Source: Betaproteobacteria bacterium
GTDB taxonomy: Bacteria; Pseudomonadota; Gammaproteobacteria; Burkholderiales; SG8-39
Length of the DNA: 57,796 bases
Direction of reading: 5' to 3'
Assembly: GCA_031391655.1 (NCBI GenBank)
Contig: JANMUO010000306.1
Span: forward strand, 1 to 57,796
The notes beneath the pieces are model-generated. The model was not told the DNA's origin and searched no databases. It saw nothing but the letters and a program-made list of their open reading frames with translations. Numbering within the stretch: the first letter of the stretch is position 1; every line of letters starts with the position of its first letter. Of this stretch, positions 20,862-37,529 are shown piece by piece. Position numbers and translations under genes: made by a program.

Positions 20862-21845
20862 ATGATCGCGAATGCGCCCTACTCCGGGCTGGACCCGGAC
20901 ACCGTGCTGGATGCCCTGGACAGCGCGGGGCAGCGCGGCGACGGCCGCCTGCTCGCGCTCAACAGCTACGAGAACCGCGTCTACCAGGTGTGGCTGGAGG
21001 ACAACTCCTCGGTGGTGGCGAAGTTCTACCGCCCCGCGCGCTGGAGCGACGCGCAGATTCTCGAAGAGCATGCCTTCGTGCGCGAACTCGAGGAGCGCGA
21101 GATCCCGGCCGTGGCGCCGCTCGCGCTGGAGGGCAGGACGCTGTTCGAGCACGCAGGGTTCCGCTTCGCAGTGTTTCCGCGGCGCGGCGGCCGCACGCCG
21201 GAACTGGACCGCCGCGACACGCTGGAGTGGATCGGGCGCTTCATCGGCCGCATCCATGCCGTCGGTGCCGTGCAGCCGTTCGCCGAACGCCCCGCGCTCG
21301 ACGCGGAGAACTTCGGCCGCGAGCCGCGCGATTGGCTGCTGCAGAACGGCTTCCTGCCGCCTGACCTGCTCGGCGCGTGGACAAGCGCTGTGGAGCAAGC
21401 GCTGCAGGCCGTCGAGCATTGCTATGCGCGCGCAGGCGCCGTGTCCACGCTGAGGCTGCACGGCGACTGCCACGCCGGCAACGTGCTGTGGACCGACCAG
21501 GGACCGCACTTCGTGGACTTCGACGACGCGCGCACCGGCCCCGCAGTGCAGGACCTGTGGATGCTGCTGTCGGGCGACCGCGCCGACATGACGCGCCAGC
21601 TCGGCGACGTGCTCGCCGGCTACGAGCAGTTCCGCGAGTTCGATCCGCGCGAGCTGCACCTCGTGGAGGCGTTGCGCACGCTGCGCCTCATCCACTACTC
21701 GGCGTGGATCGCGCGGCGCTGGGACGACCCTGCGTTTCCCGCGGCCTTCCCGTGGTTCAACACGCAGCGCTACTGGCAGGACCGCATCCTGGAACTGCGC
21801 GAACAGATCGCGCTGATGGACGAGCCGCCGCTGGTCAGGCCCTAG
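20862..21845 (+). CDS. srkA: Stress response serine/threonine kinase SrkA (YihE/RdoA family)
   Basis: Track ORF 20826..21845 trimmed to the ATG at 20862. It has LNSYENRVYQV, the catalytic loop HGDCHAGNVLW and DFDD. Confidence 0.85.
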   Translation: MIANAPYSGLDPDTVLDALDSAGQRGDGRLLALNSYENRVYQVWLEDNSSVVAKFYRPARWSDAQILEEHAFVRELEEREIPAVAPLALEGRTLFEHAGFRFAVFPRRGGRTPELDRRDTLEWIGRFIGRIHAVGAVQPFAERPALDAENFGREPRDWLLQNGFLPPDLLGAWTSAVEQALQAVEHCYARAGAVSTLRLHGDCHAGNVLWTDQGPHFVDFDDARTGPAVQDLWMLLSGDRADMTRQLGDVLAGYEQFREFDPRELHLVEALRTLRLIHYSAWIARRWDDPAFPAAFPWFNTQRYWQDRILELREQIALMDEPPLVRP

Positions 21846-22297
21846 AGGAGCTTGTAGGCCTCCAGCAGCACCTGGCGTGCCTTGCGCTGCGCGCTGGCCA
21901 CCGCAATGGTGCGGTTGAGCCACACCAGGTCGGCAGCGCCGGTCTCGAAGCGCATCACGGTGCGGAAGAAATACTTTTCCGGTGGCACGTCCTCGCCGCG
22001 GCCGAGCGCGGCGAGCACCTCCGGCGGCCCGTGGCGATAGCCCTGGCTCACCACCCGGATGAGCGCTCCGGCGTCCGTGCGCAGCGCATAGCGCGCGTCG
22101 ATGTCCAGCACCCCGTCTGCGCGCAATATCTGCCAGTCGGCGCCGCCGGGGACGATTGCCCCTTTCAGCTGCGGGCCTTCGAAGCTGCCGCCGGTGATGG
22201 CCACCACACGGCGCTCGCCAAGCGGGCCGCCACCCATGGTCATCAGTTCGCCGACGTCGGCGGCGACGTTCATCAGGAATTCGAACCGGGGAGCCAT
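21842..22297 (-). CDS. DUF3237 (UPF0311) family protein
   Basis: Distal 151 aa of track ORF 21842..22465, from the ATG at 22297. The sequence reads MAPRFEFLMNVAADVGELMTMGGGPLGERRVVAITGGSFEGPQLKGAIVPGGADWQILRADG. Confidence 0.65.
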   Translation of the reverse strand: MAPRFEFLMNVAADVGELMTMGGGPLGERRVVAITGGSFEGPQLKGAIVPGGADWQILRADGVLDIDARYALRTDAGALIRVVSQGYRHGPPEVLAALGRGEDVPPEKYFFRTVMRFETGAADLVWLNRTIAVASAQRKARQVLLEAYKLL

Positions 22298-22316
22298 TGC
22301 CAGTATCCTGCCACGC

Positions 22317-23186
22317 ATGCGGCAGCCCGAGGAAGCCCTGGAGGTGAGCGCGCCTCTGGCGCGGCGGCTGGCCCCACAGCTTTGCCGCGTGGATCCCGCG
22401 ACTGGCGAGAACTGCGCCTGGAACCACGGCTTCTGGCAGTACATGCGGCTGCTCGGCCTCGCCATCGCGCCAGAACACCACGCGGCGTTCTACCGCGAGT
22501 CGCTGCGCGGGCTGCTCACCGCCTCCCCCCGCGTGCTGGTATCCGGCACTTCCGACTACGCCATGCTCGCGCTGCTGATCGGCCTCGCCCGCTCGCAAGG
22601 CGGCATGCCCGCCATCACGGTGCTCGACCGCTGCGAGACATCCCTCATGCTGAACCGCTGGTACGCCGAGCGCGTCGGGACAACGATCGCAACCCGCTGC
22701 GCCGACATCCTCGCGCCGGCGAACGATGCGCCCTACGATTTCATCTGCACGCACGGATTCTTCGGCTACTTCGACGCAGCGCAGCGGCGTGCCCTGGTCT
22801 CCCGCTGGCAGGCGCTGTTGCGCCCGGGCGGGCGCGTGATCACGGTCAACCGCCTGCGCACGCCGGCTGCGCCCGAGCGCACCGGCTTCGACGGCCGCCA
22901 GACCGACGCGTTCGCGCTGCGGGCCCGCGCAGCGGCCGAGGCGCTGACCGGTGGCATCGACCTTCCCCCGCCGGTACTGGAGACCGCGGCGCGCGCATAC
23001 GCCGCGCGCCTGGGTGTGTACACGCTGCGCTCGATAGAGGAGCTGCGCCGCCTGTTCGAGGACGCCGGCTTCGTCCTCGACGTCCTGCACTGCGAGCCGA
23101 TCGCCGTGCCCGCGCGCCACCCCGTGGACGCGCCGACGGTGCCGGGCGGCGACGACTACGTGCACGTCGTCGCTACGCGGCGCTGA
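22317..23186 (+). CDS. Class I methyltransferase-fold protein with atypical SAM-loop
   Basis: Distal 289 aa of track ORF 22101..23186. It has post-I-like ITVLDRCETSLML, an acidic loop CADILAPANDAPYDFIC and WQALLRPGGRVIT. Motif I reads VLVSGTSDYA instead of GxGxG. Confidence 0.55.
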   Translation: MRQPEEALEVSAPLARRLAPQLCRVDPATGENCAWNHGFWQYMRLLGLAIAPEHHAAFYRESLRGLLTASPRVLVSGTSDYAMLALLIGLARSQGGMPAITVLDRCETSLMLNRWYAERVGTTIATRCADILAPANDAPYDFICTHGFFGYFDAAQRRALVSRWQALLRPGGRVITVNRLRTPAAPERTGFDGRQTDAFALRARAAAEALTGGIDLPPPVLETAARAYAARLGVYTLRSIEELRRLFEDAGFVLDVLHCEPIAVPARHPVDAPTVPGGDDYVHVVATRR

Positions 23187-24537
23187 GTTCCGAGAGGAAC
23201 TCCTCGTACTTGCCGCCCGCGCTGCGCGGAATCGACTCGCAGTAGGCGAAACGCAACGTCAGGCCCGGGGGCAGCATGGACAGCACGCGTTCGCGGAACG
23301 CGGCCTCTTGCGCCGGCGACAGCGGCACCACGGCCACCAGGCGCGCTTCGACCAGGTCGTGCGCCTTCTGCACGAACTGGTACTGCCGCACGGGAGCCGT
23401 TTCCATCAACGCGCGCGTGCCGAACACGGGCCAGTACTTCTTTCCGTCCGCGGTGACGAGCGTGTTGCGTACGCGTCCAAGGATGCGCCGCAACACCGGC
23501 AACCCCCGCCCGCAGGCGCAGGGTTCGCCGACTTCAGCGTAGTCCCCGATGTCGTAGCGCACGAGCGGCATGGCAAAGCTGTGCAGCGGCGTCACCACCA
23601 CGCGGCCGACCATGCCGGGACTGCAGGGCGCGCCGGACTCGTCCAGCACCTCGAGCAGCACGCCCTCGGACTGCACGTGGTAGTGCTCGCCCGTCGGGCA
23701 CTGCAGTGCGAGGTAGCCGGTCTCGCTGGCCGAGTAGACGTCGGTGACCGGCACGCCCCAGGCTTCGCGCGCGAGGGCGCGCAGCTCGGGCGAAACGGAT
23801 TCCGCGAGCGTGCGCACTTCTCGCAGCCCCTCCAGGCGCAGGCCGCGTGCGAGCGACAGGCGCGCCAGCTCCAGGGCCAGCGACGGATAGGTGAACAGGT
23901 AGGCCGGCTTTTCGCGCAGCAGCCAGTCGACATGGCGCTCGGCGTCGTCGCGGATCGATGCGCCGAGCGAACGCCCGGTCGCGAATAGATTCGCCGTCGC
24001 CGAGCCCCAGTTGGCGACATCGGAGGCTTCCGTCTCGCGGCGAATCACCGCCAGCCTGGCGCTGAGATCGCGGCCGTGCCAGTCGTGGTCGCGCAGGGTG
24101 AATGCATTCCAGTACAGCCCGCCGAGTGGGGTGGCGAGGAAGCGCACCGGGGCGCCGGTGGAGCCGGAGGTGCGTCGTTCCTCCGGCACGCCGTGCGCCT
24201 GGAGCGGATTTGCGCTGCGCAGTCTCTCGTAGCTCGCCTGCAGCTCTCCCCGTTTGAGCAACGGCAGCTTGCGCAACCGCTCGTAAGTCAGCGGGGCCAC
24301 GGGATCGTAGGCATTCGCCCACTGCTCGCGATACCAGGGCACGGTCGCCTGCGCGTGGCGCAACAGCACCTCGAGCTGGCCGAGCTGGAGCGCGAGCAGC
24401 TCCTGCGGCGCAAGCCACTGAGTGCGCTCGAGCTGCCAGAGCACCGCGAGCACCGTCGCACCGCTTGGCGCCGGGATCGCAGGCCACGCCGCGCCGGGAA
24501 CTGCGCCCTGCACGCGCCAGGGAGGGCTGCGCGTCAC
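23173..24537 (-). CDS. PaaK/F390-synthetase-like adenylate-forming ligase (ANL superfamily)
   Basis: Distal 454 aa of track ORF 23173..24951, from a GTG at 24537 (GTGA overlap with the upstream stop). It has the AMP-binding motifs RRTSGSTGAPVRF and DVYSASETG. Confidence 0.75.
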   Translation of the reverse strand: MTRSPPWRVQGAVPGAAWPAIPAPSGATVLAVLWQLERTQWLAPQELLALQLGQLEVLLRHAQATVPWYREQWANAYDPVAPLTYERLRKLPLLKRGELQASYERLRSANPLQAHGVPEERRTSGSTGAPVRFLATPLGGLYWNAFTLRDHDWHGRDLSARLAVIRRETEASDVANWGSATANLFATGRSLGASIRDDAERHVDWLLREKPAYLFTYPSLALELARLSLARGLRLEGLREVRTLAESVSPELRALAREAWGVPVTDVYSASETGYLALQCPTGEHYHVQSEGVLLEVLDESGAPCSPGMVGRVVVTPLHSFAMPLVRYDIGDYAEVGEPCACGRGLPVLRRILGRVRNTLVTADGKKYWPVFGTRALMETAPVRQYQFVQKAHDLVEARLVAVVPLSPAQEAAFRERVLSMLPPGLTLRFAYCESIPRSAGGKYEEFLSELSAA

Positions 24538-25724
24538 GCCGCCCGCCTCGCGATCGCCGCTTCGATGTGGCCGATCATGGTCGCGAGCACCGTCGCGGGG
24601 TCTTGTCGCTCGTAGCGGCGCGCGAACTCGCGCGCTTTCTCCGCGTACGCCGCCTTGCCCGCCAGGTCGCCGAGCGCCCTGGCGTAGTCGGCGTCCGGCA
24701 CCTGCGGATCCGTCCCCAGTCCCGCGCCAAAGCGCACCACGCGACGCATGATGAGGAACTGCTCGAGCTGCGTGGGCAGCAGAAGCAGCGGCTTGGCGCC
24801 GAGCAGCGCCTGCGCCGTCATCTGGTGGCTGGCGTGGCACACCACCACATCGGCCTGCGGCAGCAGCCGCGACACCGACATGGGCTCCCCCGTTACGCGC
24901 ACCGATCCGCCCTCGTGCTTGCGCACGAGCTCGGCATTGGCATTGCGGCACAGCATCAGCGTCGGCGCTTCCAGCCTGCGCAGCGCCCCGAGCAGCGGAT
25001 CGAGCCCGTTGAAATAGTTATAGAGGTAGGCGAACACGCGCGGCCCGCGGCCGGCGGGCCAGTCCGGCACGGCGCTGCCCTCGCCAGACCTGGGCACGCC
25101 GTAGTAGTCGGCCGGCCCCCGCTCGGGATAAATGTCCAGCTCCGGATAGGTGAGCAGCATCGCGCGCCCCGAGAACAGCTCGCCGATGGTGCCGATGCGC
25201 GCGGCGCCGTGCGCGGACAGGACGGCGTTGATCGCCTCCAGCACCGCGCCATCGGCCGCCTCCAGCTCCGCGCGCGGCGCCGGCTCCCAGTGGCGCAGGG
25301 GCGGCGAGGGCATCGTCGGCGGCGGCACGTGGAAACCTTGCGAGATCTCGAAGCTCGGGACGCCGAGCGTGCGCGCCGCAATATGCGCCGCTGGCGACAC
25401 GTTGGCCACCACCGCCTGCGCATCGGCGAGCCGCTCGCGCCACGCGTCAATCAGCTGGCGCAGGCTGTCGTGCAGGTGGTAGCCGAAGTTCTGCAGGATC
25501 TGGCCAAAGTTTAGCGGGTTGGCGTACTTCGCCGGGCCGACCCAGATCGGCGCGGCGGCGCGCGGGATCTCGGCCGCGCCGGCCAGGTCGGCACCGGATT
25601 TCGGTTCGCGCAGCAGGAAGCTGACGTCGTGGCCGCGCGCCTGCATGGCGCGCGCGATGGGCAGCAGCGTGGTGACGTGCCCGGTGTGGCCGCCCAGCTC
25701 CCACGCAAAAACGATCTTTGCCAT
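24534..25724 (-). CDS. GT-B fold glycosyltransferase (GT1/MGT-like)
   Basis: 396 aa. The N-terminus MAKIVFAWELGGHTGHVTTLLPIARAMQARGHDV is typical of GT1/MGT enzymes. The C-terminal donor-binding region VVCHASHQMTAQALLGAKPLLLLPTQLEQF is a divergent version of the HHGGxGT...P...DQ motif. Confidence 0.65.
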   Translation of the reverse strand: MAKIVFAWELGGHTGHVTTLLPIARAMQARGHDVSFLLREPKSGADLAGAAEIPRAAAPIWVGPAKYANPLNFGQILQNFGYHLHDSLRQLIDAWRERLADAQAVVANVSPAAHIAARTLGVPSFEISQGFHVPPPTMPSPPLRHWEPAPRAELEAADGAVLEAINAVLSAHGAARIGTIGELFSGRAMLLTYPELDIYPERGPADYYGVPRSGEGSAVPDWPAGRGPRVFAYLYNYFNGLDPLLGALRRLEAPTLMLCRNANAELVRKHEGGSVRVTGEPMSVSRLLPQADVVVCHASHQMTAQALLGAKPLLLLPTQLEQFLIMRRVVRFGAGLGTDPQVPDADYARALGDLAGKAAYAEKAREFARRYERQDPATVLATMIGHIEAAIARRAA

Positions 25725-25730
25725 GCCCCT

Positions 25731-25761
25731 GAAATAAGAAAGCCCGCGCTGGGCGGGCTTT
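25731..25761 (-). terminator. Rho-independent terminator downstream of the FecR-like gene
   Basis: On the minus strand, AAAGCCCGC-CCAGC-GCGGGCTTT is followed by CTTATTTC. It lies 22 nt after the stop at 25783 and immediately upstream of the glycosyltransferase start. Confidence 0.6.
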
Positions 25762-25782
25762 CATCTTATCCCGGCGGCGGGA

Positions 25783-26487
25783 TCAGATCGCGCAGGAATC
25801 CGCCTGGCCACCGCTGATGCTGGTCGGGTTGGCCGAACCGAAGCTCTGCGGCGGCTTGATGCTGGGAAGATTGGGCGGCGGCGGCACGATCACCGGGGGC
25901 AGGTTCGCGTTGCTGGAGTACGCCGTCTGTCCGGCCGCCGCGAGCAACTCCTGTCCGCCCGAGGTCAACACCACCTGGCCGTCGGCCACCACGACGTATA
26001 CACCGGGCGCGGGGCTGCTGCCGCCCTGTCCCTCCGGCACCTCAATCGCGTTGAAGTCGGTGCCTCGGATGCCCACGGTGGCCGTCGCCGTGCGCAGCTT
26101 GTAGGCATCGCGATTGCCGCGCTTGCCGACCAAGCCGGTCACCGCCCGCATGCCGCCCTTGAGCAGGGCGAACACGAAACTGTCCTTCTGCGGCTCGTTC
26201 TCCGAGAATTCGTACCCCTCGATTCGGATCTGCGTGTTCGGGCGCAGCGTGATCTGCCCGCCGTCGGTGAGCTTGATCTGCGCGTAGCTGTCGCGCTCGG
26301 TGGAAACCACGTCGCCCTGCAGCACCTGCGACTTCTCCGACAGGAGGCGTACCGTGCCGTCGGGACGCTGCACGTGCAGCGTGCCCGACAGGTGCTGCAC
26401 CGAGCCTTGCGACCAGGCGAGCAGCGGTGCCAGGAGCGCCGCCGCGAGCGCGGCCTTGAATGCACTCATCCGCATCAGGCTTTGCAT
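25783..26487 (-). CDS. FecR domain-containing periplasmic protein
   Basis: 234 aa with signal peptide [22 protein letters not shown]. The FecR-type core is [55 protein letters not shown]. The C-terminus is Pro-rich. Alternative ATGs at 26475 and 26469 overlap or abut the upstream stop. Confidence 0.75.
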
Positions 26488-29400
26488 GAACTGAACTCCT
26501 TCTTGGACTTGTTCTCGTCCTTTTCCTCGTCCTCGCCGCCCACGAAGTCCGTGGACTCGTCGAACGCTTTGACCGTTTGCTGGAAGTTCGCATTGACCTC
26601 GGGAATCGACAGCGGGTCGAGGATCACGATGGTGCCGAAGTAGTCTGACATGGAGTTGAAGGTGCCGGTTCTTCCCGCAGCAGCGCCCGCGCCAGCGCCG
26701 ACTCCGCCATCGGTTCCGCCAACTCCACCCGCGCCACCCTGGACATTGAACTGCGTGCCCGCCAGGACGAAGATGATGCCGTCGCCAATCTGGGTATCGG
26801 TCACGCTGCTGGCATCGAGGTAAATGAACCCGGCGTTTCCGCCGTTGCCTCCACTGCCGCCCACATTCGCCCCATTCCCGGCCCCGCCGTTACCGCCCGC
26901 ACCGCCTGCGGCATTCACGGATCCGAACATGGTCATATTCGGGGTGCCGATAAGGTCCGCGGTGCCGCCTGCGCCGCCTGTGCCGCCGTTGCCCGCGGGA
27001 CTCGTCGCGGCGTTGCCGTTGCCGCCCGCACCGCCGGAAACGTCGATCGACACGGTGCCGAGTGCGCCGCCGTCATTGATCGATATCTCGCCGGTGCCCT
27101 GCACGTTGACGCGGCCGCCATTGCCGCCGCTGCCGGCAGTACTGCCCGGTGTGCCATTCGCAGAGAGGCTCTGGTTCAGGACGTCGCCGCCCTTGCCGCC
27201 ACCGGCCAGGATCGGCCCGCTGACGTCGATGGTTGAGCCGGATATGTACACGCCGCTGCTGAATGCGCCGCCACCGCTGCCGCCCCAGCCTCCGGAAGTT
27301 AAGGAAGAGCCCATCGCCCCGCTATTGCCCCCATTGCCGCCGGAGATGTCGATCATGCCCGTCGAGACGGGGCCAGGAATGGATACCTGCCCGCCGTAGC
27401 TTGAGGCGTTCAGGGACACCGAACCGCCCATGCCGCCCATCCCGCCGCTGGAATTACCGCCGCTATCGGATATCGTGCCGCCCGTGCCGCCATCGGCGCC
27501 GCGCGCCATGATGGCGCCTGTCGCGATCGACGTCCCGGTGATGCTCACCGAGCCGCCGTAATAGCCGTTGCCGCCATAGCCGTAGAGGACTGCAGCTCCG
27601 CCATTGCCGCCCCGGCCGCCAAGGATGTCCATCGCGCCGGTCGTGACCGGGCCCGTCGAATTCAGATTGATACTCGAGCCACGGCCACCCGATCCTCCGT
27701 TGGCATAGATGCCGGTCCCTCCGCTGGCGCCGTCGCCGCCGCGCCCGGCAATCGGGCCGATATCGATGGAACTCGCGTTCACGACGTCAAAGTAGCCGGC
27801 ATATCCCCCGCTGCCGCCCCAGGCATACTGGGTTGCCGTGCCGCCTGCGCCCGCGTGACCGCCCGAGACATCGGCCGACCCGATCGAGACTGGCCCCGTT
27901 GCGGAAACATAGACGTTGGTGCCTCGACCGCCGCTGCCGCCGTACCCATAAGGGAAAACCCCTCCCGTGGCGGTGCCGCCCGCCGCTCCGTTGCCGCCCC
28001 GGCCAACGATCGACGAGATACTGACCGCAGTGCCGAACACGTCGAGGTAGCCGCCGTCGCCACCGCTGCCGCCCCAAACGTACTCTGCGGCAGCACCCCC
28101 CACCCCGCCGTGCGCGCCGGACATATCGATCGAGCCGATCGACACCGGGCCCGACAAAGAATTCAAATAGAGGGAACTGCCCTCGCCGCCGTCACCGCCG
28201 TTGGCGTACAGGTAACCGCTCGCGTTGCCTCCCGCGCCGCCATTGGCGCCGCGGGCAACGATGGCTCCGATGTTCACTCCGGTGGCACCGCGAATCTGGG
28301 TGTAGCCCGCGGACCCGCCCCACCCACCGATCGAATAGGAGCCATAGGCTGAACCGCCGGCGTTGCCCCCTGCCCCGCCAGAATTGTCGATGGAGCCGAT
28401 GGCAACGGAGCCCGCGTCCGAATACAGTTGCAGGCTTCCGCCCCAACCGCCGTCGTTGCCGTATGCCGATCCGTCCGCGCCGTTCCCGGCATTGCCGCCG
28501 CGCGAGACGATTCCGCCTATTCCAATCGAGCCATAGGACCAGACTGAAATCTGGCCCGCGGACCCGGCCTCCGTCCCAGAAATAGCTTCCGTAACGGATC
28601 CGCCATGGCCGCCGCTGGTATTGCTCACGCCGGCGACGGAAACGCTGCCGGCAAGCGGTGCATTCACGAAACTGCAATCACCGCTGCAATCATCGCCGCC
28701 AATCAAAACATACCCGCCCCATCCCCCGCTGTGATCCTGGCCCGGAACTGCCGTACCGCTGGCGCCGTTGCCTCCCGTGGTAAGGATATCCCCGTTCACC
28801 CTGACGGCCGTACCGGCAAAGCCGTCCTGGGCAGTGCGCACCAGACTTACGCCGCCGCCGTCTGAGCCGGCGCTAAAAGTTTCCATGCATCCGTCATTGC
28901 ACGTATCGACCGCAACGAGGCTGCCGGGCGCGCCGCGTGTGTCGATCATGCCGTTGACGCTGATTACGCCGTTGTTCGTCGCGAGCCGCACGTAGCCACC
29001 GTCCCCATGAACCGGATGCGGCGACGCTGTCACGATCGAAGCTGTCGTGATATTGCCGGACGCCGTCACGGACACGCTGCCGTTGCCGAACGTGTCCCCG
29101 GGATTCAGCGTGCTGCTCGTGCTGATCAGCCCGCCGACCGAAATGGCGCCGTTGGCTGCGTTCACGACCACGGATCCGCCGCCGGTGGTGATGCCGCCCG
29201 TGGCGACATTCCCATTGGAGGAAGCTAGGTTCACAGACCCGGCGTTGCTAGATCCGGAAGTATTGATGTTGCCTAGGTTCACCGCCCAGCCCTGCGCGTC
29301 CAGCGACCCGCCACTAGTTGTGATGTTGCCGCCGCCAGGGGACGAGGTAATGGCTCCAGTTGTCGCGCTGCCCCCGTAGGCCACCGCCCCGGGTGCCGCA

Positions 29401-30992
29401 GCAAGCAGCGTCAAGTTGCCGATCGTACTGATGCCATTGACACCGAGATTAATGTTGTTCCCGGCCTCCATGCTCACGCTTCCGCCATAGGTCAGAGTGA
29501 GGCTGGCCTGCAGATTGATGTCGTTGGTGGCTTGTATTTGAATGAAGCCATTGCCGGCCATCGCATTGTTGATCGCGTCCACTCCGACGCTCGAGACCAC
29601 ATCCGGCCAGCAGATCATGTTGGCCCCACACGCGCCGTAGGCCTCCAGCCCACCCGCCACGATGGTGATGTCCGTGGGGTCGAGCAGCCAGTTGCCGCCG
29701 ACGCCGTTCGGCGCACTGACATTGACCGAGCCGAACGCCTGCAGCGCGCCCTTGCCGGAAGTCTCTACGAAGCCGCCGTTGCCCGACTGCGCCCCGCCCT
29801 TGACGCTGATCGCGCCGTAGAACTCCGTGTCCTTGTCCGCCCACACGATCACCCGCCCGCCATCGCCCGTGGTCATCGCATCCGCGCGAATGACCCCGTC
29901 CGTTCCAACATACGTACGCTCGGCGTTCTGCACCGCCGCGTTCTTGCCCTGGTAATCCCCGCCCACCAGCACCGTGCCGCCGCCGGTATCGCCCGACGCA
30001 TCGATCACGCCGTGGCCCACGACCCCGACGCGCACGCCCAGCGCCTGGACCTCGCCGCCTTTGCCGGCCGAACCCTTGGCTTCGACCGTTCCACCAACAA
30101 GATTCGTCCCGCCCTCAGCCTGCAACAGCACCTTGCCGCCGCTCGCGCCGTTGGCCGTCACCGTGCTGCCCGCATCCAGCGTCAGGTCCCTGCTCGCCAC
30201 CAGGCGGATCTCCCCACCCGGGCCCGCAACGACGCTGTTGGCCGAAATGGTTCCCGAATTGCGCACCAGCGCGCCGAACATGCCGATGCGGCCACTGTCG
30301 GCGATGATGTTGCCGATGTTGAGCGCACTGTCGGTGGCCGCCGCCAGCTTCACCGTGACAAACGGCGTGTTGGCGTCGACCAGTTCCACTTCCTTGCCCG
30401 CCGCGAGGACCACCGCGCCCTGCGGCGTCTGGATCAGTCCGTTGTTCTCGACCGTCGGGGCGACCAGGTAGACGCGACTGCCGGCCACGGTCTGGATGAT
30501 GCCGTTGTTGACCACCGCGCCGGCGCCCGGCACTTCCGTGAAGCGCAGGCGGTTGGCGAGGAAGTCCTGGTCCGAAAGCGCCAGGCTCGAGGCCACCATG
30601 CCGGCGGTGTCGATGCGCGAATTGGCGCCGAAAATGATGCCGTTCGGGTTGATGAGGAACACTCGCCCGTCGGACTTCAGCGCGCCGAGGATGCTGGAGA
30701 GCTCGCTGCCGGTGACGCGGTTGAGCACCGCCAGGTTGGCGAACTGCTGGAACTTGGTGATCTCGTTGATGCCGATCGAGAAGCCGTTCCAGTTGATGAT
30801 GGCGTTGCCGCCCGCCGTGTTCGTGATGGTGAGCGCGCTGGTGCCCAGGCCGCTGAAGCCGACGCCGCCGTGGACGACGGTCGGCACCGAAGGATTCGCC
30901 AGGAGCAGGGGTGCGTGGAGGGCAAAACAGGCGGCAACCGACACCGCGATCTGCTTTGGTTTGAGGACTGATTCCGGCTTAGCGCGTGTCAT
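26475..30992 (-). CDS. Two-partner secretion exoprotein (TpsA, filamentous hemagglutinin N-terminal domain) with glycine-rich repeat C-terminal half
   Basis: Track ORF 26475..31010, which has a GTG at 31010; the ATG at 30992 gives [35 protein letters not shown]-domain motifs are [26 protein letters not shown] and [12 protein letters not shown], followed by [10 protein letters not shown]...[10 protein letters not shown]. The distal region is made of GGxGG repeats. Confidence 0.9.
26805..28532 (-). repeat. 13 tandem degenerate coding repeats (39-52 aa each) inside tpsA
   Basis: By hand alignment, 576 aa divide exactly into 13 units. The unit pattern is x-(V/I)-S-I-G-x-I-x-x-(R/S)-G-G-x-G-G-x-G-G-x-x-x-x-Y-x-x-G-G-x-G-G-x-G-x-x-x-x-(L/V), with alternating IVxRGG and IDxSGG flavours. 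Confidence 0.8.
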
Positions 30993-31051
30993 GTTCCATT
31001 CTAGGCCCACCGAGTGAGCGCAGCCTTGTTAAAAATTGCACAGAGTACGTA

Positions 31052-32629
31052 TCAGAAGGTGTAAGCGATGCCAAAGTGGGCCCGCCCCTTGCCGCTGTCC
31101 CGGGTCCCCGCGTTGTTGAGGACCACGGCGTAATCGGCGCGCAGCGAGATGCTGCGGCCGCGATTGGCCCGCAAGCCAAGTCCGGCGCTGCTCATGCCGT
31201 TCTCTTCCAGCCGGACCGGTTGGTTGTCCCGTCCGTGGCCCGCGTCGTAGAAGGCCAGCATGCGGGCACGCCAGTCGGCGCCGATGGAGGGCCCGATCTC
31301 CGGCCCGTAGGCCTCGAGGGACACCCGGTGGCCATTGTCGTTGGCCACCTCGCGCTCGTTGAAGCCGCGCACGCTGTTCTGGCCTCCCAGGCCGTACTGC
31401 TCGCCCGGCACGAGGGCGTTACGCGTGTACTGCCCGTCGATGGCGAAGCGCAGTATTGCGTCCCCGCCGATGGCGTGCGAATAGGCGGCGCCGGCGCGCC
31501 AGATGCGGAAATTGGCGGCGGCGCCCGGCCTCGCCTGCTCGATGGCGGCCTGCGACGCATCGCCCTCATCGGTCGGCATGTTTTGCGCGACGCCAAGCGT
31601 GAAGCTGAAGTCGCGCCCCGACTCGGCGAAACGCCCGAAGTAGTTGAGCAGCAGCGGCTGGGTGGTAACGTCCGGCACCAGGGTGGTGCTGCCGCCGATG
31701 AGCACCACGTCGTTGGTGAACGCCTTGAACTCGAAGCCGAGCGACATCTTCTGCTCGTAGGCGCCATAGCGCGTCAGGATCTGCGTGTAGCGCGCGCCGA
31801 GGATGGTGCCCGCGCCCGCCACCGAGAACAGGTTCTGCACGGTGCCGGACTCGACGTCCGAGTATCCGCCGTAGGCCTCCAGCACTGCGTTCCACTCGTA
31901 GAACGGCACGCGGTAGCCGACGCCGAAAATCTGCACGTCGTCCCACTGCGTGGGCGAGGTGATGAACTGCACGTTGATCACCCGGTCCTTGTTGTCGAAG
32001 TTCGAGTTCACCACGCCGAACCCAGTGCGGTAGTAGCCCGTGGTGCTGTTGCCGGTGTTGTCCAGGAACACGGTAACGCGGTAAGGGTCGTCGTCCGTGA
32101 CCTTCACCGAGGCATCCACCTTGCCGATTTCCTCGGTGGACTCGAGCACCACGCGCTGCTGGCGCACCGGGTTCTCGTTGGCGAGCTGCACGTTTTCGCC
32201 GATGCGCTTGGTGTTGGGCGCCTCGCCCTCACGCAGCGCCGGCAGGCTGGCGCGCACGTTCTCGTCGTTATAGAAGCGGTTTCCCTCGATCTTGACGTTG
32301 CGGATGCGCGCTTCGATCACCTGCAGCCGCACCTGGCCGGCGCGTATGTCCTGTTCCGGGATCAGCACCCGCACCGCGTTGTAGCCCTTGGCGCTGTAGT
32401 GGTCCTGCAGGGCCTCCAGCGCGCGCTGGATGTCGCCGAAATCCTTCTGCTTGCCGACAAAGGGCTCCACCAGCGCATGCAGTTCGTAAAGCTCGAAAAG
32501 GGTGTTGCCCTCGATGTCGAAGCTGGTGATGTCGAAACGGGGAATCGGGGCGGGAGCGGGGGCCTGCGCGAAGGCGGCGATTCCCCACGACAATAGAACA
32601 GCAACCGCTAGCGTACGCATCCCCGTCAT
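31052..32629 (-). CDS. TpsB outer membrane transporter (ShlB/FhaC/HecB family, POTRA + beta-barrel)
   Basis: Track ORF 31052..32737 trimmed to the ATG at 32629. It has signal peptide MTGMRTLAVAVLLSWGIAAFAQA and POTRA-type IEGNTLF and VIEARIRNVKIEGN. The C-terminal barrel ends in HFGIAYTF. Confidence 0.9.
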   Translation of the reverse strand: MTGMRTLAVAVLLSWGIAAFAQAPAPAPIPRFDITSFDIEGNTLFELYELHALVEPFVGKQKDFGDIQRALEALQDHYSAKGYNAVRVLIPEQDIRAGQVRLQVIEARIRNVKIEGNRFYNDENVRASLPALREGEAPNTKRIGENVQLANENPVRQQRVVLESTEEIGKVDASVKVTDDDPYRVTVFLDNTGNSTTGYYRTGFGVVNSNFDNKDRVINVQFITSPTQWDDVQIFGVGYRVPFYEWNAVLEAYGGYSDVESGTVQNLFSVAGAGTILGARYTQILTRYGAYEQKMSLGFEFKAFTNDVVLIGGSTTLVPDVTTQPLLLNYFGRFAESGRDFSFTLGVAQNMPTDEGDASQAAIEQARPGAAANFRIWRAGAAYSHAIGGDAILRFAIDGQYTRNALVPGEQYGLGGQNSVRGFNEREVANDNGHRVSLEAYGPEIGPSIGADWRARMLAFYDAGHGRDNQPVRLEENGMSSAGLGLRANRGRSISLRADYAVVLNNAGTRDSGKGRAHFGIAYTF

Positions 32630-32723
32630 CGCTCCCCGAGAAAACCTGCCCGATGAACTGCTTGTTGGTTTGCGGCGGATTCTCCCACGCGTTTTTGGGG
32701 GCGGCAAGGGATAATCCGCGGCG

Positions 32724-33557
32724 ATGGACAGGAGCAAGCTCGCCTATTGGGACCAGCGCGCGACGCGCCCTGCCGGCCGGCCACTGCCGGCGCCGATCCG
32801 GCCGGCGGGCGAGGACATCGAGTTCTGGGAATCGCGGCTGCGCGCGCTTTGCAGACAACGTAGTAAATTGCAAGCGTTGCTGCTGGGCGTCACGCCGGCG
32901 CTGGCAACGCTGCGCTGGCCCGTGCCAACGCAGTTGCTGGCGATGGATTGGTCGGGCGGCATGATCCGCCGCGTGTGGCCCGCGGCCGGCTTGCCCGGAT
33001 TCGCGGCGCCGGTGCGCGGCGACTGGCGCCAGATGCCCCTCGCCGACGCCAGCCGCGACCTGGTCATCGGTGATGGCTGCTACGCCGCGCTCGCCACCTT
33101 CGCCGATTGCGAAGCGCTCAACGCGGAAGTCCGCCGCGTGCTGCGCCCGGCCGGCCTGTACTGCCTGCGCTGTTACCTGAGGCCGGAAGAGCCGGAACGG
33201 CTGGACAGGCTGTTCGCCGAGCTGCACGCGGGGTGCATCGGCGAGTTCGAGATCTTCGTCTGGCGGCTGGCCATGGCACTGCACGGACCGGGGCGGGTGG
33301 GCGTGCGCATGCAGGAGGTGTGGCGCGGCTGGCACGCGCACGTGCCCGACACCCCGGCCCTGCTGGCGCGGCTCGGCTGGAGCGAGCAGGCCTATGCCAA
33401 CATCGCGCAGTGGCGCGACTCGCGCCTCGAGATGCCGCTGCCCACGCTGTCCGAGGCGCGCGCGATGCTCGCGCCGCGATTCGAGATCCTCGAGTGCAGT
33501 TTCGGCGGCTACGAGATGGGCGACCGCTGCGCGCGCCTGGTGATGCGCAAGCGCTAG
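32724..33557 (+). CDS. Class I methyltransferase-fold protein with atypical SAM-loop
   Basis: 277 aa with LLAMDWSGGMI, VRGDWRQMPLADASRDLVIGDG and EVRRVLRPAGLYCL. Motif I reads ALLLGVTPALA rather than GxGxG. It is divergent from tpsB. Confidence 0.55.
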   Translation: MDRSKLAYWDQRATRPAGRPLPAPIRPAGEDIEFWESRLRALCRQRSKLQALLLGVTPALATLRWPVPTQLLAMDWSGGMIRRVWPAAGLPGFAAPVRGDWRQMPLADASRDLVIGDGCYAALATFADCEALNAEVRRVLRPAGLYCLRCYLRPEEPERLDRLFAELHAGCIGEFEIFVWRLAMALHGPGRVGVRMQEVWRGWHAHVPDTPALLARLGWSEQAYANIAQWRDSRLEMPLPTLSEARAMLAPRFEILECSFGGYEMGDRCARLVMRKR

Positions 33558-34363
33558 CGCAGGCAGGACTCGATGCCCTCGGACAGGGCATCGAGCGGAT
33601 TCGGCCCGGAGGAGGCTCGCGGATACGAGGGGGTGCGGTTCACGTCGAGCAGCACCCAGCGCTCGCCATAGCGCACGTAGTCGAACTTGCCGAAATCGAA
33701 CCCCAGGCGCTGGCGCCAGGCGCGCATCTCCGCGGGAACCTCGACCAAGTCGCGCCCGGTCATGTTGTTCGCCTTCACGATCGGATCGGCGGCGCGCCAG
33801 CGCACGCTGCGCTCGCGGTCGCCGAGGAAAGTCCACACGCGCAGGCAGTAGTCCTCGGCGTCGCGTTCGGGAAGGAAACGCTCCACCACCACGCCCGCCG
33901 TGCGCCAGACCTCCTCGGGCACCTCGCGCAGCGAGGCGTAGATCGGGTAGCTCTCGGCAACCGGGCCGGGCGTGAAATCGGCGCGCACCCCGGACTGCTC
34001 GGCGATCATGCCCAGCAGCTGTTCGGGCTTGCCGCCGTAGTTCGCCTCGGTCTTGACGATCACCGGGCCGATCCAGTCGGTGTAGCGGTCGAGCAGGTCG
34101 CGGCTGAAGCGGCTTTTCGACACGTCGGTCACGCCGGCGTTGAGGACCCGGGCGTAGCGCCCCGCGAGCGCGCGATAGGCTTGCGGCACGACAGTCAGGT
34201 CCACGTGCATCACCGCCAGGTCGCCCGCGGGCACATCCTCGACGCCGTGATGAAGGTGCACCCGATGGCCGCGCCGGCGCCAGTGCCCGGCGAAGGCATG
34301 CATCATGTAAGGCAGCCCGACGTCGCGCTGCAGCGCATGCTCCAGGATCACGATGGTCGCCAC
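33554..34363 (-). CDS. Hypothetical protein, ATP-grasp-like
   Basis: 269 aa. VIVKTEANYGGKPE and the C-terminal FDFGKFDYVRYGERWVLLDVNRTPS resemble ATP-grasp phosphate-loop and Mg-binding segments. This is inference from motif memory only. Confidence 0.5.
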   Translation of the reverse strand: MATIVILEHALQRDVGLPYMMHAFAGHWRRRGHRVHLHHGVEDVPAGDLAVMHVDLTVVPQAYRALAGRYARVLNAGVTDVSKSRFSRDLLDRYTDWIGPVIVKTEANYGGKPEQLLGMIAEQSGVRADFTPGPVAESYPIYASLREVPEEVWRTAGVVVERFLPERDAEDYCLRVWTFLGDRERSVRWRAADPIVKANNMTGRDLVEVPAEMRAWRQRLGFDFGKFDYVRYGERWVLLDVNRTPSYPRASSGPNPLDALSEGIESCLR

Positions 34364-34370
34364 GGCCGCG

Positions 34371-35006
34371 CTAGCCCGCCAGGTCGTCCAGCGCCGCGTC
34401 GAGGTGGCCGCGCTCGCCCCAGGCGAGCACCTGCCAGCCCGCCGCGCCCGCCTCGACCCAGTTGATCGTCGCGTTGGCGATCTCGAAATCGCGCGGCGAC
34501 GTCAATCCGCTATCGCGCGCGTGCCGGTGCACCATCTCCAGCACCCCGCCATGCGTGAACACCAGCACCGACTCGCCCGCATGGCGCGCCGCGATGGCGC
34601 CCACGCAGGCGATGGCGCGCTCGTTGAACGCCAGCAGGCTCTCGCCGCTGCCGAAGTCGTACTCCGGCTCCTTCGCCTTGAAGCGCGCGAAATCCTCCGG
34701 GTGCTTCTCGCGCGCCTCGGCGTAGGTGAGCGTCTCGAACTTGCCGTAGTGGCGCTCGCGCAGCCCCGCGTCGAGCCGCGGCGCCAGGCCGAGGGCGCTC
34801 GCCGCCGGCGCGGCGGTCTGGCGCACGCGTGCGAGGTCGCTCGAGTACAGCGCCGCGAAGCGCATCCCGCCGAGCGCGGCGCCAACGGCGCGCGCCTGCG
34901 CTTCGCCGACTGCCGACAGCGGCACGTCGGTCTGTCCCTGCACCCGTCCCTCGGCGTTCCACGCGGTCTCACCGTGACGGATTAAGCAAATCCTCGCAGA
35001 AGCCAT
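34371..35006 (-). CDS. Histidine phosphatase family protein (phosphoglycerate mutase-like)
   Basis: 211 aa with the catalytic RHGETAWN motif, a later LVFTHGGVL, and ERHYG. Confidence 0.85.
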   Translation of the reverse strand: MASARICLIRHGETAWNAEGRVQGQTDVPLSAVGEAQARAVGAALGGMRFAALYSSDLARVRQTAAPAASALGLAPRLDAGLRERHYGKFETLTYAEAREKHPEDFARFKAKEPEYDFGSGESLLAFNERAIACVGAIAARHAGESVLVFTHGGVLEMVHRHARDSGLTSPRDFEIANATINWVEAGAAGWQVLAWGERGHLDAALDDLAG

Positions 35007-35044
35007 TCTTTCCTTCCGTTGGACGCCGGTATCATAACGGCGCC

Positions 35045-36130
35045 GTGCCCGAATCCGTCCCCCACGCGCAGCGCCACGCCCCCAGCCTCGAGCAGGAGGA
35101 GCTGCGCGGCATTTCGCGCACGGTCGCCGAGATCGAGTGGCTGCTGCTGATCCTGGTGCTGGTGTACATGGTGTTCGGCTGGCCGATCGCCGAGGGCGAG
35201 CCGGCCCTGTCGATGGCGATGTTCTTCTTCGCCGCTTTTGTCATGAGCTTCCGCTACGCGAACTTCTACAAGCACGAGTCGCGCTGGAAGATCGCAGTGG
35301 AGACCCTGGCGATGATCGCCTTCATCACCTGGGTGCTGTGGTTCACCGGCGGGCTGGCGAGCCCGCTGGTCAACGCCTACCTGCTGGTGGTGATCACCAG
35401 CGCGCTCACGCTGGGCAAGACCGTGACCCTGGCCGAGGTGGCGGTGATCGGCGCCTGCTACCTGTTCCTCGACTGGCAGGTGGGCGGCAAGGACCTCCTG
35501 CGCCTGCCGTACTGGGGCAACTACGTCGCGCAGCTCGCACCGGTGCTCTTGGTGGCCTACATCACCACTATGTTCTCGGCCGACATCCGCTACGGACTGA
35601 ACCGCGCCAAGCTGCTGTCGGAAACAGACGAGCTCACCGGCATCTACAACATGCGCGGCTTCGTGGTGATCGCCAACCGGCTGTTCGCGCAGGCGCAGCG
35701 CTACGAGCGCCCGGCCAGCTTCCTGATGGTGGATTCGGACAACCTGAAGCAGGTCAACGACCAGCACGGCCACGAGGCCGGCAACCTGCTGCTCAAGCAT
35801 GTGGTGAAGGCAGTACAGGCGCAACTGCGCTTCACCGACGTGCCGGCACGCTACGGCGGCGACGAGTTCGTCGTCATGCTGCCGGACACCCCGGCGCGCG
35901 GGGCGCTCGAAGTGGCGGAGCGCATCCGCCACGCCATCGAAGAGGCGACGTTCGCCGCCGGCAGCGGCCGCGTGGCCTGCACCGTCAGCATCGGCGTGGC
36001 GAGCTACCCGGAGGACGGGCGCAGCATGGACGCCCTCCTCGCGCGTGCCGACCGCGCCCTGTACCTCGCCAAGGAAGGCGGCAGGAACCGCGTCGCCCGC
36101 TTCCAGGCGGAGCCCGCTGCGTCCACGTAG
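35045..36130 (+). CDS. Membrane-bound diguanylate cyclase (GGDEF)
   Basis: Distal part of track ORF 34829..36130, from the first start (GTG at 35045) beyond the divergent phosphatase gene. Several TM segments are followed by LTGIYNMRGF, the I-site RFTD and an intact RYGGDEF. Confidence 0.85.
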   Translation: MPESVPHAQRHAPSLEQEELRGISRTVAEIEWLLLILVLVYMVFGWPIAEGEPALSMAMFFFAAFVMSFRYANFYKHESRWKIAVETLAMIAFITWVLWFTGGLASPLVNAYLLVVITSALTLGKTVTLAEVAVIGACYLFLDWQVGGKDLLRLPYWGNYVAQLAPVLLVAYITTMFSADIRYGLNRAKLLSETDELTGIYNMRGFVVIANRLFAQAQRYERPASFLMVDSDNLKQVNDQHGHEAGNLLLKHVVKAVQAQLRFTDVPARYGGDEFVVMLPDTPARGALEVAERIRHAIEEATFAAGSGRVACTVSIGVASYPEDGRSMDALLARADRALYLAKEGGRNRVARFQAEPAAST

Positions 36131-36149
36131 CCGCCTAGTCGGCGCGGCG

Positions 36150-37529
36150 CTACATCGCGAATTCGACGTAGGTGTAAATGTAGTTCGAGCCGCCGTTCAC
36201 GTTGTTCAGCAGCTGCGAAAACCCAAAGATGCCCGAGCGGTGCGACGCCCCGATGCCGACGAAAGTGTCCTTCAGGCTGCGCACGTTGAACAGGTCGCCC
36301 ACGCTGAAATCGATCGTCGGGTCGAGGTAGGTGAGCAGCTTGCTCGTATTGCGGCCGCGCTCCGCCTGGTCTTTCGCCTCGACGTAGGGCACGCGGCTGG
36401 CGTAGGACAGGCCGGTGCCGATCCCCAGGCGCGTCTTCACGCGATGGCTCCAGGGCAGCCCGTACCAGTACGGCTTGAAGTAGGCGTTGAGCTGCCAGGA
36501 ATTCGGCTGGTAGCCCTTTTCGTCGTGGTACAGCAGGCCGATGTAGCCGGCGAGGTCCACGTTCCAGCCGTTGAGCCGCTCGATCAGGGTGCGCCCGAGT
36601 TCGACCGACGACACGCGCGTCTCCTCCGGCGTATCAGTCGAAGTGCAGCGGAACAGCATCACTTTCGCCAGGTCGCAGTCGGTCTGCTGGCCGTGGTACA
36701 GCTTCACCCACAGCGGGCGTCCCTCGGGAATCGGCCAGGGCTGCGGCGAATGGTCGTACAGCAGGCCCAGGCTGAAGGAGGACTGCATGCCGCTTTCCAC
36801 GATCGGGCTGTGGCGCACGGTGCTCGACCATTGCGTCGCCGAAGCCCCGGCGAGGACCTTCCAGTGGGTGCCCAAGGGATAAGTCGCATACACCGAGAAC
36901 TGCAGGTTCAGGCCCGCGCCGGCGTCGTAGGCGGGCCGCGCGGCCGTCGCCTCCCCTGGCAGCACACCATAGTAATAGTTGTTCAGCTTTCCATCGCGCC
37001 AGGAAGCCATGATCTGGGGGAAATAGCGCAGCCTGCCGTAGGCGAGTTCCTTCCTGAACCCGACGCGCAGCTCGCTGCCCTGCGAATCGCCGTCCACGTT
37101 GTGCAAGGCTTCGCCGAACACTTCCCCCCAGCCGTAGCGCCGGCGGTAGCCCACGCCCAGGTCGGTGCCCTGCTCGCGGATCGCCATGCCGGCCAGCACC
37201 GGCGGATGGTCGTCCTGCGGCGTGCCCTCGTAGCGGTGCGAGAGGAACACGTCGAGGCGGCTCGTCGCGTCCAGGCGCCACTTCACGCCGACGCGATCGG
37301 CGTGCCAGTAGGCGTGCTCGCCGAAGTACAGGTTTACCGGCAGGTAGTCGTAGCGCATGCCCTGCCCGCGGTAGATCGAACTCTCCGCGCGCGCCACGCC
37401 GCCTTCGCCGGCGCCGCCGTCCTTCATGACATCGCCCAGCGGTTGGCTTTGCGCCTGCGCGGCAAGCGGCAGGCACAGCATCGACAACAGGATAAGACGC
37501 GCGGCGCGGAGTGTGAAGAGCGTGAACAA
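36150..37529 (-). CDS. Outer membrane protein: MipA/OmpV-like N-terminal half plus additional beta-barrel-like C-terminal half
   Basis: Track ORF 36150..37814 trimmed to the TTG at 37529, which has a GAGGAA RBS 7 nt upstream and signal peptide FTLFTLRAARLILLSMLCLPLAAQA. MipA-type motifs are LAGMAIREQGTDLG, NYYYGVLPGEATAARPAYDA and SPIV. The C-terminal half ends GIGASHRSGIFG...NGGSNYIYTYVEFAM. Confidence 0.7.
   Translation of the reverse strand: MFTLFTLRAARLILLSMLCLPLAAQAQSQPLGDVMKDGGAGEGGVARAESSIYRGQGMRYDYLPVNLYFGEHAYWHADRVGVKWRLDATSRLDVFLSHRYEGTPQDDHPPVLAGMAIREQGTDLGVGYRRRYGWGEVFGEALHNVDGDSQGSELRVGFRKELAYGRLRYFPQIMASWRDGKLNNYYYGVLPGEATAARPAYDAGAGLNLQFSVYATYPLGTHWKVLAGASATQWSSTVRHSPIVESGMQSSFSLGLLYDHSPQPWPIPEGRPLWVKLYHGQQTDCDLAKVMLFRCTSTDTPEETRVSSVELGRTLIERLNGWNVDLAGYIGLLYHDEKGYQPNSWQLNAYFKPYWYGLPWSHRVKTRLGIGTGLSYASRVPYVEAKDQAERGRNTSKLLTYLDPTIDFSVGDLFNVRSLKDTFVGIGASHRSGIFGFSQLLNNVNGGSNYIYTYVEFAM

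Follow-up and report, generated by a model that had tools for sequence, protein, structure and literature searches.

The 57,796 nt of contig JANMUO010000306.1 from a Betaproteobacteria bacterium (assembly GCA_031391655.1; 'the window' hereafter) contain at positions 22317-34363 a single inserted 12-kb accessory island of eight genes, encoding a methyltransferase (MT1), a ligase, a glycosyltransferase (GT), a FecR-like protein, TpsA, TpsB, a second methyltransferase (MT2) and an ATP-grasp enzyme. Probably, this adhesin island and its tailoring enzymes represent a hitherto undescribed means by which a secreted protein is decorated. In the reading that we favour, and to which we assign a probability of about 0.5, GT would glycosylate an exported protein of the locus before export, with two further enzyme pairs attached. 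TpsB would export the Gly-rich TpsA as the core of a FecR-type two-partner secretion (TPS) system, whose periplasmic FecR-domain partner would be translationally coupled to tpsA, and GT would act on TpsA or on that partner in the cytoplasm ahead of Sec export, analogous to HMW1C and TibC. The ligase and MT1 may elaborate the modification, for example by acylating and methylating the glycan, while MT2 and the ATP-grasp enzyme would be an optional add-on pair with the least certain target; transcription reading through a conserved hairpin behind fecR would give a low level of GT and ligase. The source genome is a soil Burkholderiales metagenome-assembled genome (3.35 Mb in 419 contigs, 89% complete, 7% contaminated) in which the window is contig C68.

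An inserted island around a two-partner secretion system

The island is bordered on the left by a DUF3237 gene (21845-22300, minus strand; Pfam DUF3237 E 1.6e-44) and on the right by a histidine phosphatase gene (HisPhos; 34371-35006, minus strand; His_Phos_1 E 1.6e-62), both of them core flanks that lie outside it. In the island-free sister species G021 and G015 HisPhos directly adjoins DUF3237 in the same direction, with 2 nt between the HisPhos stop and the DUF3237 start in the former (TGATAATG) and about 8 nt in the latter, and in the sister genome G008 it adjoins an APH-like gene; the 12 kb that begin with MT1 and end with the ATP-grasp gene have therefore been inserted. HisPhos and DUF3237 probably once formed a single operon that the island has split, and insertion into this apparent operon explains the 7-nt spacing between HisPhos and the ATP-grasp gene. 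HisPhos is present in all five sister genomes tested, island-free ones among them, and elsewhere it is either not beside the block (L026) or at the block's opposite end (L040). We also considered that HisPhos and the ATP-grasp enzyme might be a PPIP5K-like kinase/phosphatase pair, and rejected this, since it is the site of insertion that has brought the two together.

Within the genus, GT and the ATP-grasp gene share exactly the same three of 25 species genomes (G000, which is the source genome, G013 and G022). Loci L026 and L040, from other genera, contain the identical eight genes in the same order between flanks that differ from those of the window; the same eight genes are present in L038, and L107 retains the block with a 65-aa remnant of MT2, HisPhos at one side and the end of the locus at the other. 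The sequence-only reading of this DNA, made before any of these comparisons, had described the TPS genes as embedded in a shell of six tailoring-type genes and had named conserved synteny as its check. Five of the six are indeed co-inherited with the TPS genes, as the empty sister sites and the differing flanks attest, and the eight-gene block recurs in other genera; the sixth, HisPhos, is a core flank that is also present in island-free genomes, and the pair of MT2 and ATP-grasp genes is also found without TPS genes.

The core of the island is a type Vb system, with a TPS-domain TpsA (26475-31010, minus strand; PF05860, E 3.4e-28) beside a TpsB transporter that has POTRA_2 and a ShlB barrel (31052-32629, minus strand; PF08479, E 1.2e-20; PF03865, E 1.4e-26). 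The start of fecR (25783-26487, minus strand; Pfam FecR E 1.8e-13) overlaps the end of tpsA by 13 nt, and its product has a signal peptide. Signal peptides are absent from all five enzymes (GT, ligase, MT1, MT2 and ATP-grasp), as read directly from their sequences. At a GC content of ~68% the true frames were chosen by third-position GC (0.85-0.92) together with domain matches, and all nine genes of the sequence-only reading are present as it described them. The 94-nt divergent region that it noted between tpsB and MT2 (32630-32723, from open reading frame (ORF) coordinates) also stands, provided that tpsB starts at the Met ahead of its signal peptide. No Rfam family was detected across 21000-36500, this gap included, nor was a match to the sigma-70 consensus promoter found, again with the gap included.

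TpsA is rich in Gly (23.5%), Ser (10%), Thr (7%) and Asn (7%) and contains 24 GGxGG motifs. Its Cys1509 is the one Cys of the mature protein that is not closely paired, and the FecR-like protein contains just one, three residues from a C-terminus at which Cys is conserved in all TPS-linked homologues. In a comparison of the window with L011, L025-L043, L050, L055, L091, L093 and L107, a Cys lies 1-4 residues from the C-terminus of every TpsA of the family (SCKA, SCKG, AVCK, ICRAS, QQCS and others; 26478-26492 in the window) and of every TPS-linked FecR-like partner (SCAI, ECVVQ, DCTIQ, GCYVN and others; 25786-25800 in the window). These residues suggest an intermolecular disulfide that would tether the C-terminus of TpsA to its periplasmic FecR-like partner; FecR-like proteins linked to Slam-like barrels (see below) have no terminal Cys. 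Two features of TpsA were examined as possible signatures of the enzymes and rejected. An acidic, Lys-rich tail does not track the ATP-grasp gene (G003 has the tail without the gene, L026 the gene without the tail), and the GGxGG array follows phylogeny only rather than GT, with 19 motifs in G003, which has no GT, and none in the GT-adjacent TpsAs of Methylophilaceae.

A second FecR-type TPS system is present in the source genome G000 on contigs C8 (180-4809) and C154 (2247-8396). The former encodes TpsB, a 223-aa ORF, a FecR-like gene whose product ends ...ECAISAR, and ftsK, and the latter a TpsA-like protein of 2049 aa that ends ...SIACR. Close to this second system there are no genes of the island's GT, ligase or methyltransferase families, which elsewhere in the genome are single-copy or absent.

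A glycosyltransferase that recurs beside exported proteins

GT (24534-25724, minus strand) is a GT-B enzyme of GT1-like type. Searched against the PDB, a profile built from five homologues hits GT1 structures, CalG1, YjiC and OleD among them, over residues 249-377 (best E 3e-13); the C-terminal donor-binding signature and the N-terminal catalytic His of GT1 enzymes are both found, and His16 and Glu321-Gln322, residues of catalytic type, do not vary within the alignment. Since all of its Pfam and NCBIfam matches, EryCIII-like_C and MGT among them, fall below curated cut-offs, GT is best regarded as a distant GT1 member. The Pfam and NCBIfam scans gave no match to Glyco_transf_41, and the 44 PDB sequences matched by the alignment profile were all GT1 and MurG-type enzymes, with TibC and AAH absent. 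That the enzyme belongs to a different family from HMW1C and EtpC, as previously suggested from its sequence, is thus borne out.

We compared the neighbourhoods of 80 loci encoding GT homologues. The clade closest to the window's enzyme (57-77% identity) has 19 members, in 17 of which fecR directly precedes GT in the same direction, itself preceded by tpsB and tpsA wherever the contig reaches far enough; in the two exceptions fecR is on the other side and opposite strand (L043) or TPS genes are missing (L041). Separate GT lineages at 30-37% identity, at least three of them, also adjoin TPS systems, in other arrangements. GT is divergent from tpsB in Methylophilaceae (L050, L091 and L093), abutting it rather than fecR, and convergent with tpsB in L055; it is beside a TPS-domain protein and a TpsB-like gene in L057 and L101, and beside a TpsB-like gene in L056. 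Further homologues occur beside PEP-CTERM proteins (10 loci), beside giant RTX proteins or RTX with a C39-ABC exporter (L053, L061, L078, L060 and G035) and beside classical autotransporters (L079 and L096); in G030 one is near a weak PEP-CTERM match (19.8 bits, under the 20.7-bit cut-off). Altogether roughly half of the GT loci, from at least a dozen separate lineages, adjoin an exported repeat or surface protein, an adjacency far above the level of a random gene, although this is guilt by association and has no formal control.

The remaining homologues include several with unremarkable neighbours and others in fixed housekeeping positions (L044-L049; L045, L051, L052, L059, L064, L066, L068, L073 and L074). 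In Gallionella-like genomes the gene sits between ftsK (plus a short unannotated ORF) and rarA-serS, and in Rhodocyclaceae between ruvC and ruvA.

The position of GT directly after fecR throughout the main clade raises the question of whether the FecR-domain protein, and not TpsA, is the target of tailoring. In Slam-type loci, where TpsA is missing altogether, a ligase and a GT41 enzyme likewise come after a FecR-like protein, which also favours such a target. We nevertheless consider this quite improbable, given that no FecR gene is near the GT homologues beside PEP-CTERM, RTX and autotransporter proteins, and that GT of Methylophilaceae abuts tpsB.

The gap between fecR and GT contains a terminator-like hairpin (25738-25762, minus strand) with a T-rich tail and a 10-bp stem in which seven of the pairs are GC. 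In 15 of 17 related loci a similar GC-rich stem-loop, likewise trailed by a T-rich stretch, is conserved with changes in both stem and loop. From the end of the T-tract to the start of GT there are only ~3 nt in the window and ~10-30 nt in most related loci, too short a distance to hold a promoter, and read-through is therefore the likelier route of transcription into GT. This arrangement would probably amount to attenuated read-through, with high TPS and low GT and ligase expression, rather than to independent units. The sequence-only reading had identified this terminator and concluded from it that the genes do not form a single operon; the hairpin is real and conserved, and the conclusion drawn from it needs revising in view of the missing promoter space and the read-through that we infer.

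Ligase, methyltransferases and ATP-grasp enzyme

The ligase gene (23173-24537, minus strand) starts with a GTG at 24537 that overlaps the stop codon of GT as GTGA, and ligase and GT are therefore translationally coupled. Its profile matches in the PDB are a PaaK-like ligase (6siw, E 2.5e-19) and AjiA1. All of its NCBIfam matches (DVU_1553, FlxY and BagE) are far under their cut-offs, the best being DVU_1553 with 121 against 300, and against the PaaK equivalog TIGR02155 it scores 38.8 bits where the cut-off is 646. On sequence it can accordingly be placed in the PaaK/CapK-like branch of adenylate-forming enzymes and no more narrowly. Full-length relatives, 51-71% identical, are present in L025, L026, L027, L036, L038, L040 and L107, and homologues in 196 of 401 genomes sampled across the order.

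To place this wider family we expanded 20 loci from other families with ligase homologues at 40-50% identity to at most 20 kb each. Seven of these, from four genera in four families, have genes in a common order that encode, in turn, a Slam-like barrel (TPR plus SlipAM), a FecR-like protein, the ligase (sometimes duplicated) and a TPR-GT41 enzyme. A TpsA-like gene together with a TPR-sulfotransferase was found in two (L160 and L169), a GT1-like homologue in one and an MT2-like gene in two. The ligase homologue comes right after an Orn/Lys/Arg decarboxylase gene in L152, L156, L159, L162 and L167, with a dcd-like gene ahead of the decarboxylase in L159 and L167, and in L156 Slam-like and FecR-like genes are inserted between decarboxylase and ligase. 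The ligase is duplicated in tandem in L036 (3287-5949), and tandem ligase pairs are common in other families (G277, G219, G176 and G130).

MT1 (22317-23186, plus strand; Methyltransf_25, 27.6 bits, and Methyltransf_11) is convergent with the ligase gene, the two 3' ends overlapping by 14 nt, and is rare in the order (3 of 401 genomes, the window genome included). In one genome, G271, an MT1 homologue is convergent on a ligase homologue that has a GT41 gene just upstream; this is the GT-ligase-MT1 cassette of the window with the GT1-like enzyme exchanged for GT41. HMW1C/EtpC and OGT, all of them protein glycosyltransferases, belong to the GT41 family, and no other single argument for protein as the target of the cassette is as strong as the swap in G271. 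It is tempting to extend the proposal, tentatively and with more doubt than confidence, to an unrecognised cytoplasmic protein-glycosyltransferase family of GT1-like type that would serve the TPS, autotransporter, RTX and PEP-CTERM routes and be interchangeable with GT41 in a conserved GT-ligase-methyltransferase cassette, where ligase and MT1 might add acyl and methyl groups and so give rise to a novel type of decorated bacterial adhesin.

MT2 (32724-33557, plus strand; Methyltransf_11, 32.4 bits against a cut-off of 21.2) is not a paralogue of MT1; both are putative class I SAM-dependent methyltransferases. The non-canonical motif I that had been pointed out in both methyltransferases (VSGTSDYA and LGVTPALA) was confirmed: their matches to Methyltransf_11 and Methyltransf_25 begin at profile position 18-21, skipping motif I, whose Gly-rich GxGxG is replaced by VLVSGxxD in MT1 and LLLGVT in MT2, with no loss of motifs II and III or of the acidic post-I residue. 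The altered motif is conserved in the orthologues of both, nine of them in the case of MT1, and is therefore a family trait rather than decay.

The 269-aa ATP-grasp protein (33554-34363, minus strand), at the right end of the island, is encoded convergently with MT2 with an overlap of 4 nt. It has no Pfam sequence match, and its assignment to the ATP-grasp superfamily comes from a predicted structure. The AlphaFold2 model, from a 56-sequence alignment, has a predicted local distance difference test (pLDDT) score of 95 and a predicted template-modelling score (pTM) of 0.91, and in Foldseek it matches PPIP5K/Vip1 kinase domains, RimK, Ddl, LysX/ArgX and MdnB with probability 1.0 and template-modelling scores of 0.45-0.61. 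The Lys, Glu and Asp/Asn residues by which ATP-grasp enzymes usually bind nucleotide and Mg are conserved among the 56 homologues, K104, E161, D228 and N242 being invariant and D240 nearly so. The model bears out what had been called ATP-grasp-like from the letters of the ORF. With a threshold of E <= 0.001 the family numbers 1190 homologues, not one of which is named or carries a Pfam domain, and its gene is rare in the order (4 of 401 genomes). ATP-grasp homologues with neither MT2 nor TPS genes nearby are found in L117-L120.

The relatives of these enzymes also fit a different product. The accessory enzymes might synthesise or alter something other than a protein, such as a glycolipid, acylated sugar or small aromatic glycoside that the cell would use with the adhesin, for example as a matrix or anchor, and leave TpsA itself unmodified. 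Consistent with this, the nearest solved relatives of GT are natural-product and sterol GT1 enzymes, those of the ligase are PaaK-like aryl-acid ligases (AjiA1; BagE/FevW and FlxY families), inositol-phosphate kinases are among the best structural matches of the ATP-grasp protein, and some GT homologues are in housekeeping contexts. Domain scans of the island, however, found no carrier protein, polyketide or nonribosomal peptide synthetase, sugar-nucleotide synthesis or matching exporter gene, the GT family recurs beside four classes of exported protein, and the GT-ligase-MT1 cassette also exists with GT41, the family of HMW1C and OGT. We therefore hold a non-protein product to be unlikely, though deserving of serious weight.

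Standing of the proposal and comparison with known systems

It is important to note that several observations weigh against glycosylation of an exported protein by GT with the help of its neighbours. The main GT-TPS clade is monophyletic, such that its 17 loci represent one evolutionary event; the FecR-type TPS loci of the genus mostly lack such a GT, and ~15 distant GT homologues sit among housekeeping genes, away from any exported protein. Characterised GT1 enzymes act mostly on small molecules or lipids, and the nearest PDB relatives are natural-product glycosyltransferases for GT and aryl-acid ligases for the ligase. Many ligase homologues merely follow an Orn/Lys/Arg decarboxylase gene and have no such partners. 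The ATP-grasp gene and an MT2 homologue are paired without TPS genes in L105 and L116; this pair is therefore independent, and its link to TpsA is the weakest. Finally, the accessory enzymes are dispensable for keeping the TPS genes. G003 retains an intact fecR-tpsA-tpsB at the same site with both accessory arms deleted, and a nine-member sub-clade carries only tpsB-tpsA-fecR-GT.

Deletion scars are visible in G003, where the first ~20 codons of the ATP-grasp gene (MASIVILEHELQRYVELQYM) follow the HisPhos stop and are fused to the signal-peptide region of TpsB (L181 = G003:C92, 6600-6800). At the other end the distance between the fecR stop and the start of DUF3237 is ~45 nt, a stretch in which the MT1 start region is apparently retained (L181, 590-700). 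G022 (= L028) lacks only the ligase, and 56 nt lie between the end of GT and the end of MT1. In the nine-member sub-clade GT is followed by unrelated genes that, read from their translations only, are thioesterase-like, acyl-CoA dehydrogenase-like, APH-type kinase-like and protease-like; in the GT tree this sub-clade is nested inside full-island lineages, and the extra genes were therefore lost, not gained. The six neighbours of the TPS genes are thus not the uniform shell they were first taken for. The accessory genes form three units of unequal persistence (GT; ligase with MT1; MT2 with ATP-grasp), of which GT is the most persistent, and the arms have repeatedly been lost while the TPS core was kept.

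Such losses could mean that the adjacency has no functional meaning, with the enzymes carried along by a mobile island or settled in a hot spot for insertions. The existence of MT2 and ATP-grasp alone elsewhere, the placement of MT1 and MT2 on the opposite strand and the hairpin between fecR and GT would be equally compatible with chance. Against this, the order of the eight genes is kept across genera despite different flanks, and the neighbours of GT (exported proteins) and of the ligase (FecR and GT41) recur in many unrelated lineages, far above the ~2% that we estimate for a 20-kb window from ~4 FecR genes per 3.3 Mb. In addition, domain scans detected no integrase or transposase within the island. 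We regard chance adjacency as the least probable of the explanations considered here.

Should GT indeed glycosylate an exported protein of the locus, it would represent a third, GT1-like family for type V adhesins, with a much wider range of cargo (TPS, autotransporter, RTX and PEP-CTERM), and the conserved partner ligase and methyltransferase would point to modifications more elaborate than simple hexoses. The proposal also offers a testable function for a ligase family present in about half of the sampled Burkholderiales genomes and for an unannotated ATP-grasp family of more than 1000 homologues. Natural variants with the full island, without the ligase, with GT only and with the TPS genes only are ready comparisons.

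To our knowledge, only GT41 (HMW1C-like) enzymes and the TibC/AAH heptosyltransferases glycosylate type V adhesins in the cytoplasm. Neither FecR-type TPS systems nor an adhesin glycosyltransferase of GT1 type are described in the literature searched, where the precedents in type V secretion are GT41 enzymes and heptosyltransferases only, and the module of Slam-like, FecR-like, ligase and GT41 genes is likewise absent from it. The closest known systems are HMW1A/HMW1B/HMW1C of Haemophilus influenzae and EtpBAC of enterotoxigenic E. coli, in each of which a TPS adhesin is accompanied by a dedicated cytoplasmic glycosyltransferase (PMC3983070, PMC4550697). As in these, the island has a TpsA/TpsB pair with a signal-peptide-less glycosyltransferase in the same conserved locus, and modification would precede export. 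HMW1C and EtpC differ in being GT41 enzymes that N-glycosylate NXS/T sequons, whereas GT is GT1-like and would be only a putative adhesin glycosyltransferase; the FecR-domain partner, the PaaK/CapK-like ligase, the two methyltransferases and the ATP-grasp enzyme have no counterpart in HMW or Etp.

TibC and AAH (BAHT) are likewise cytoplasmic GT-B enzymes encoded beside a type V beta-helical adhesin, and the GT homologues of L079 and L096 that adjoin autotransporters resemble them in this respect, although the GT profile matched only GT1 and MurG-type enzymes and neither of these two. The Slam-type loci (L154, L156-L158, L161, L165 and L168) are a parallel of another kind. They have a TPR and SlipAM barrel instead of TpsB, no TpsA, GT41 as their glycosyltransferase, and a FecR-like protein with a distinct C-terminal domain and no terminal Cys. 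What they share with the island is the combination of an outer-membrane translocator, an exported FecR-domain protein, a ligase that is 42-47% identical and a glycosyltransferase.

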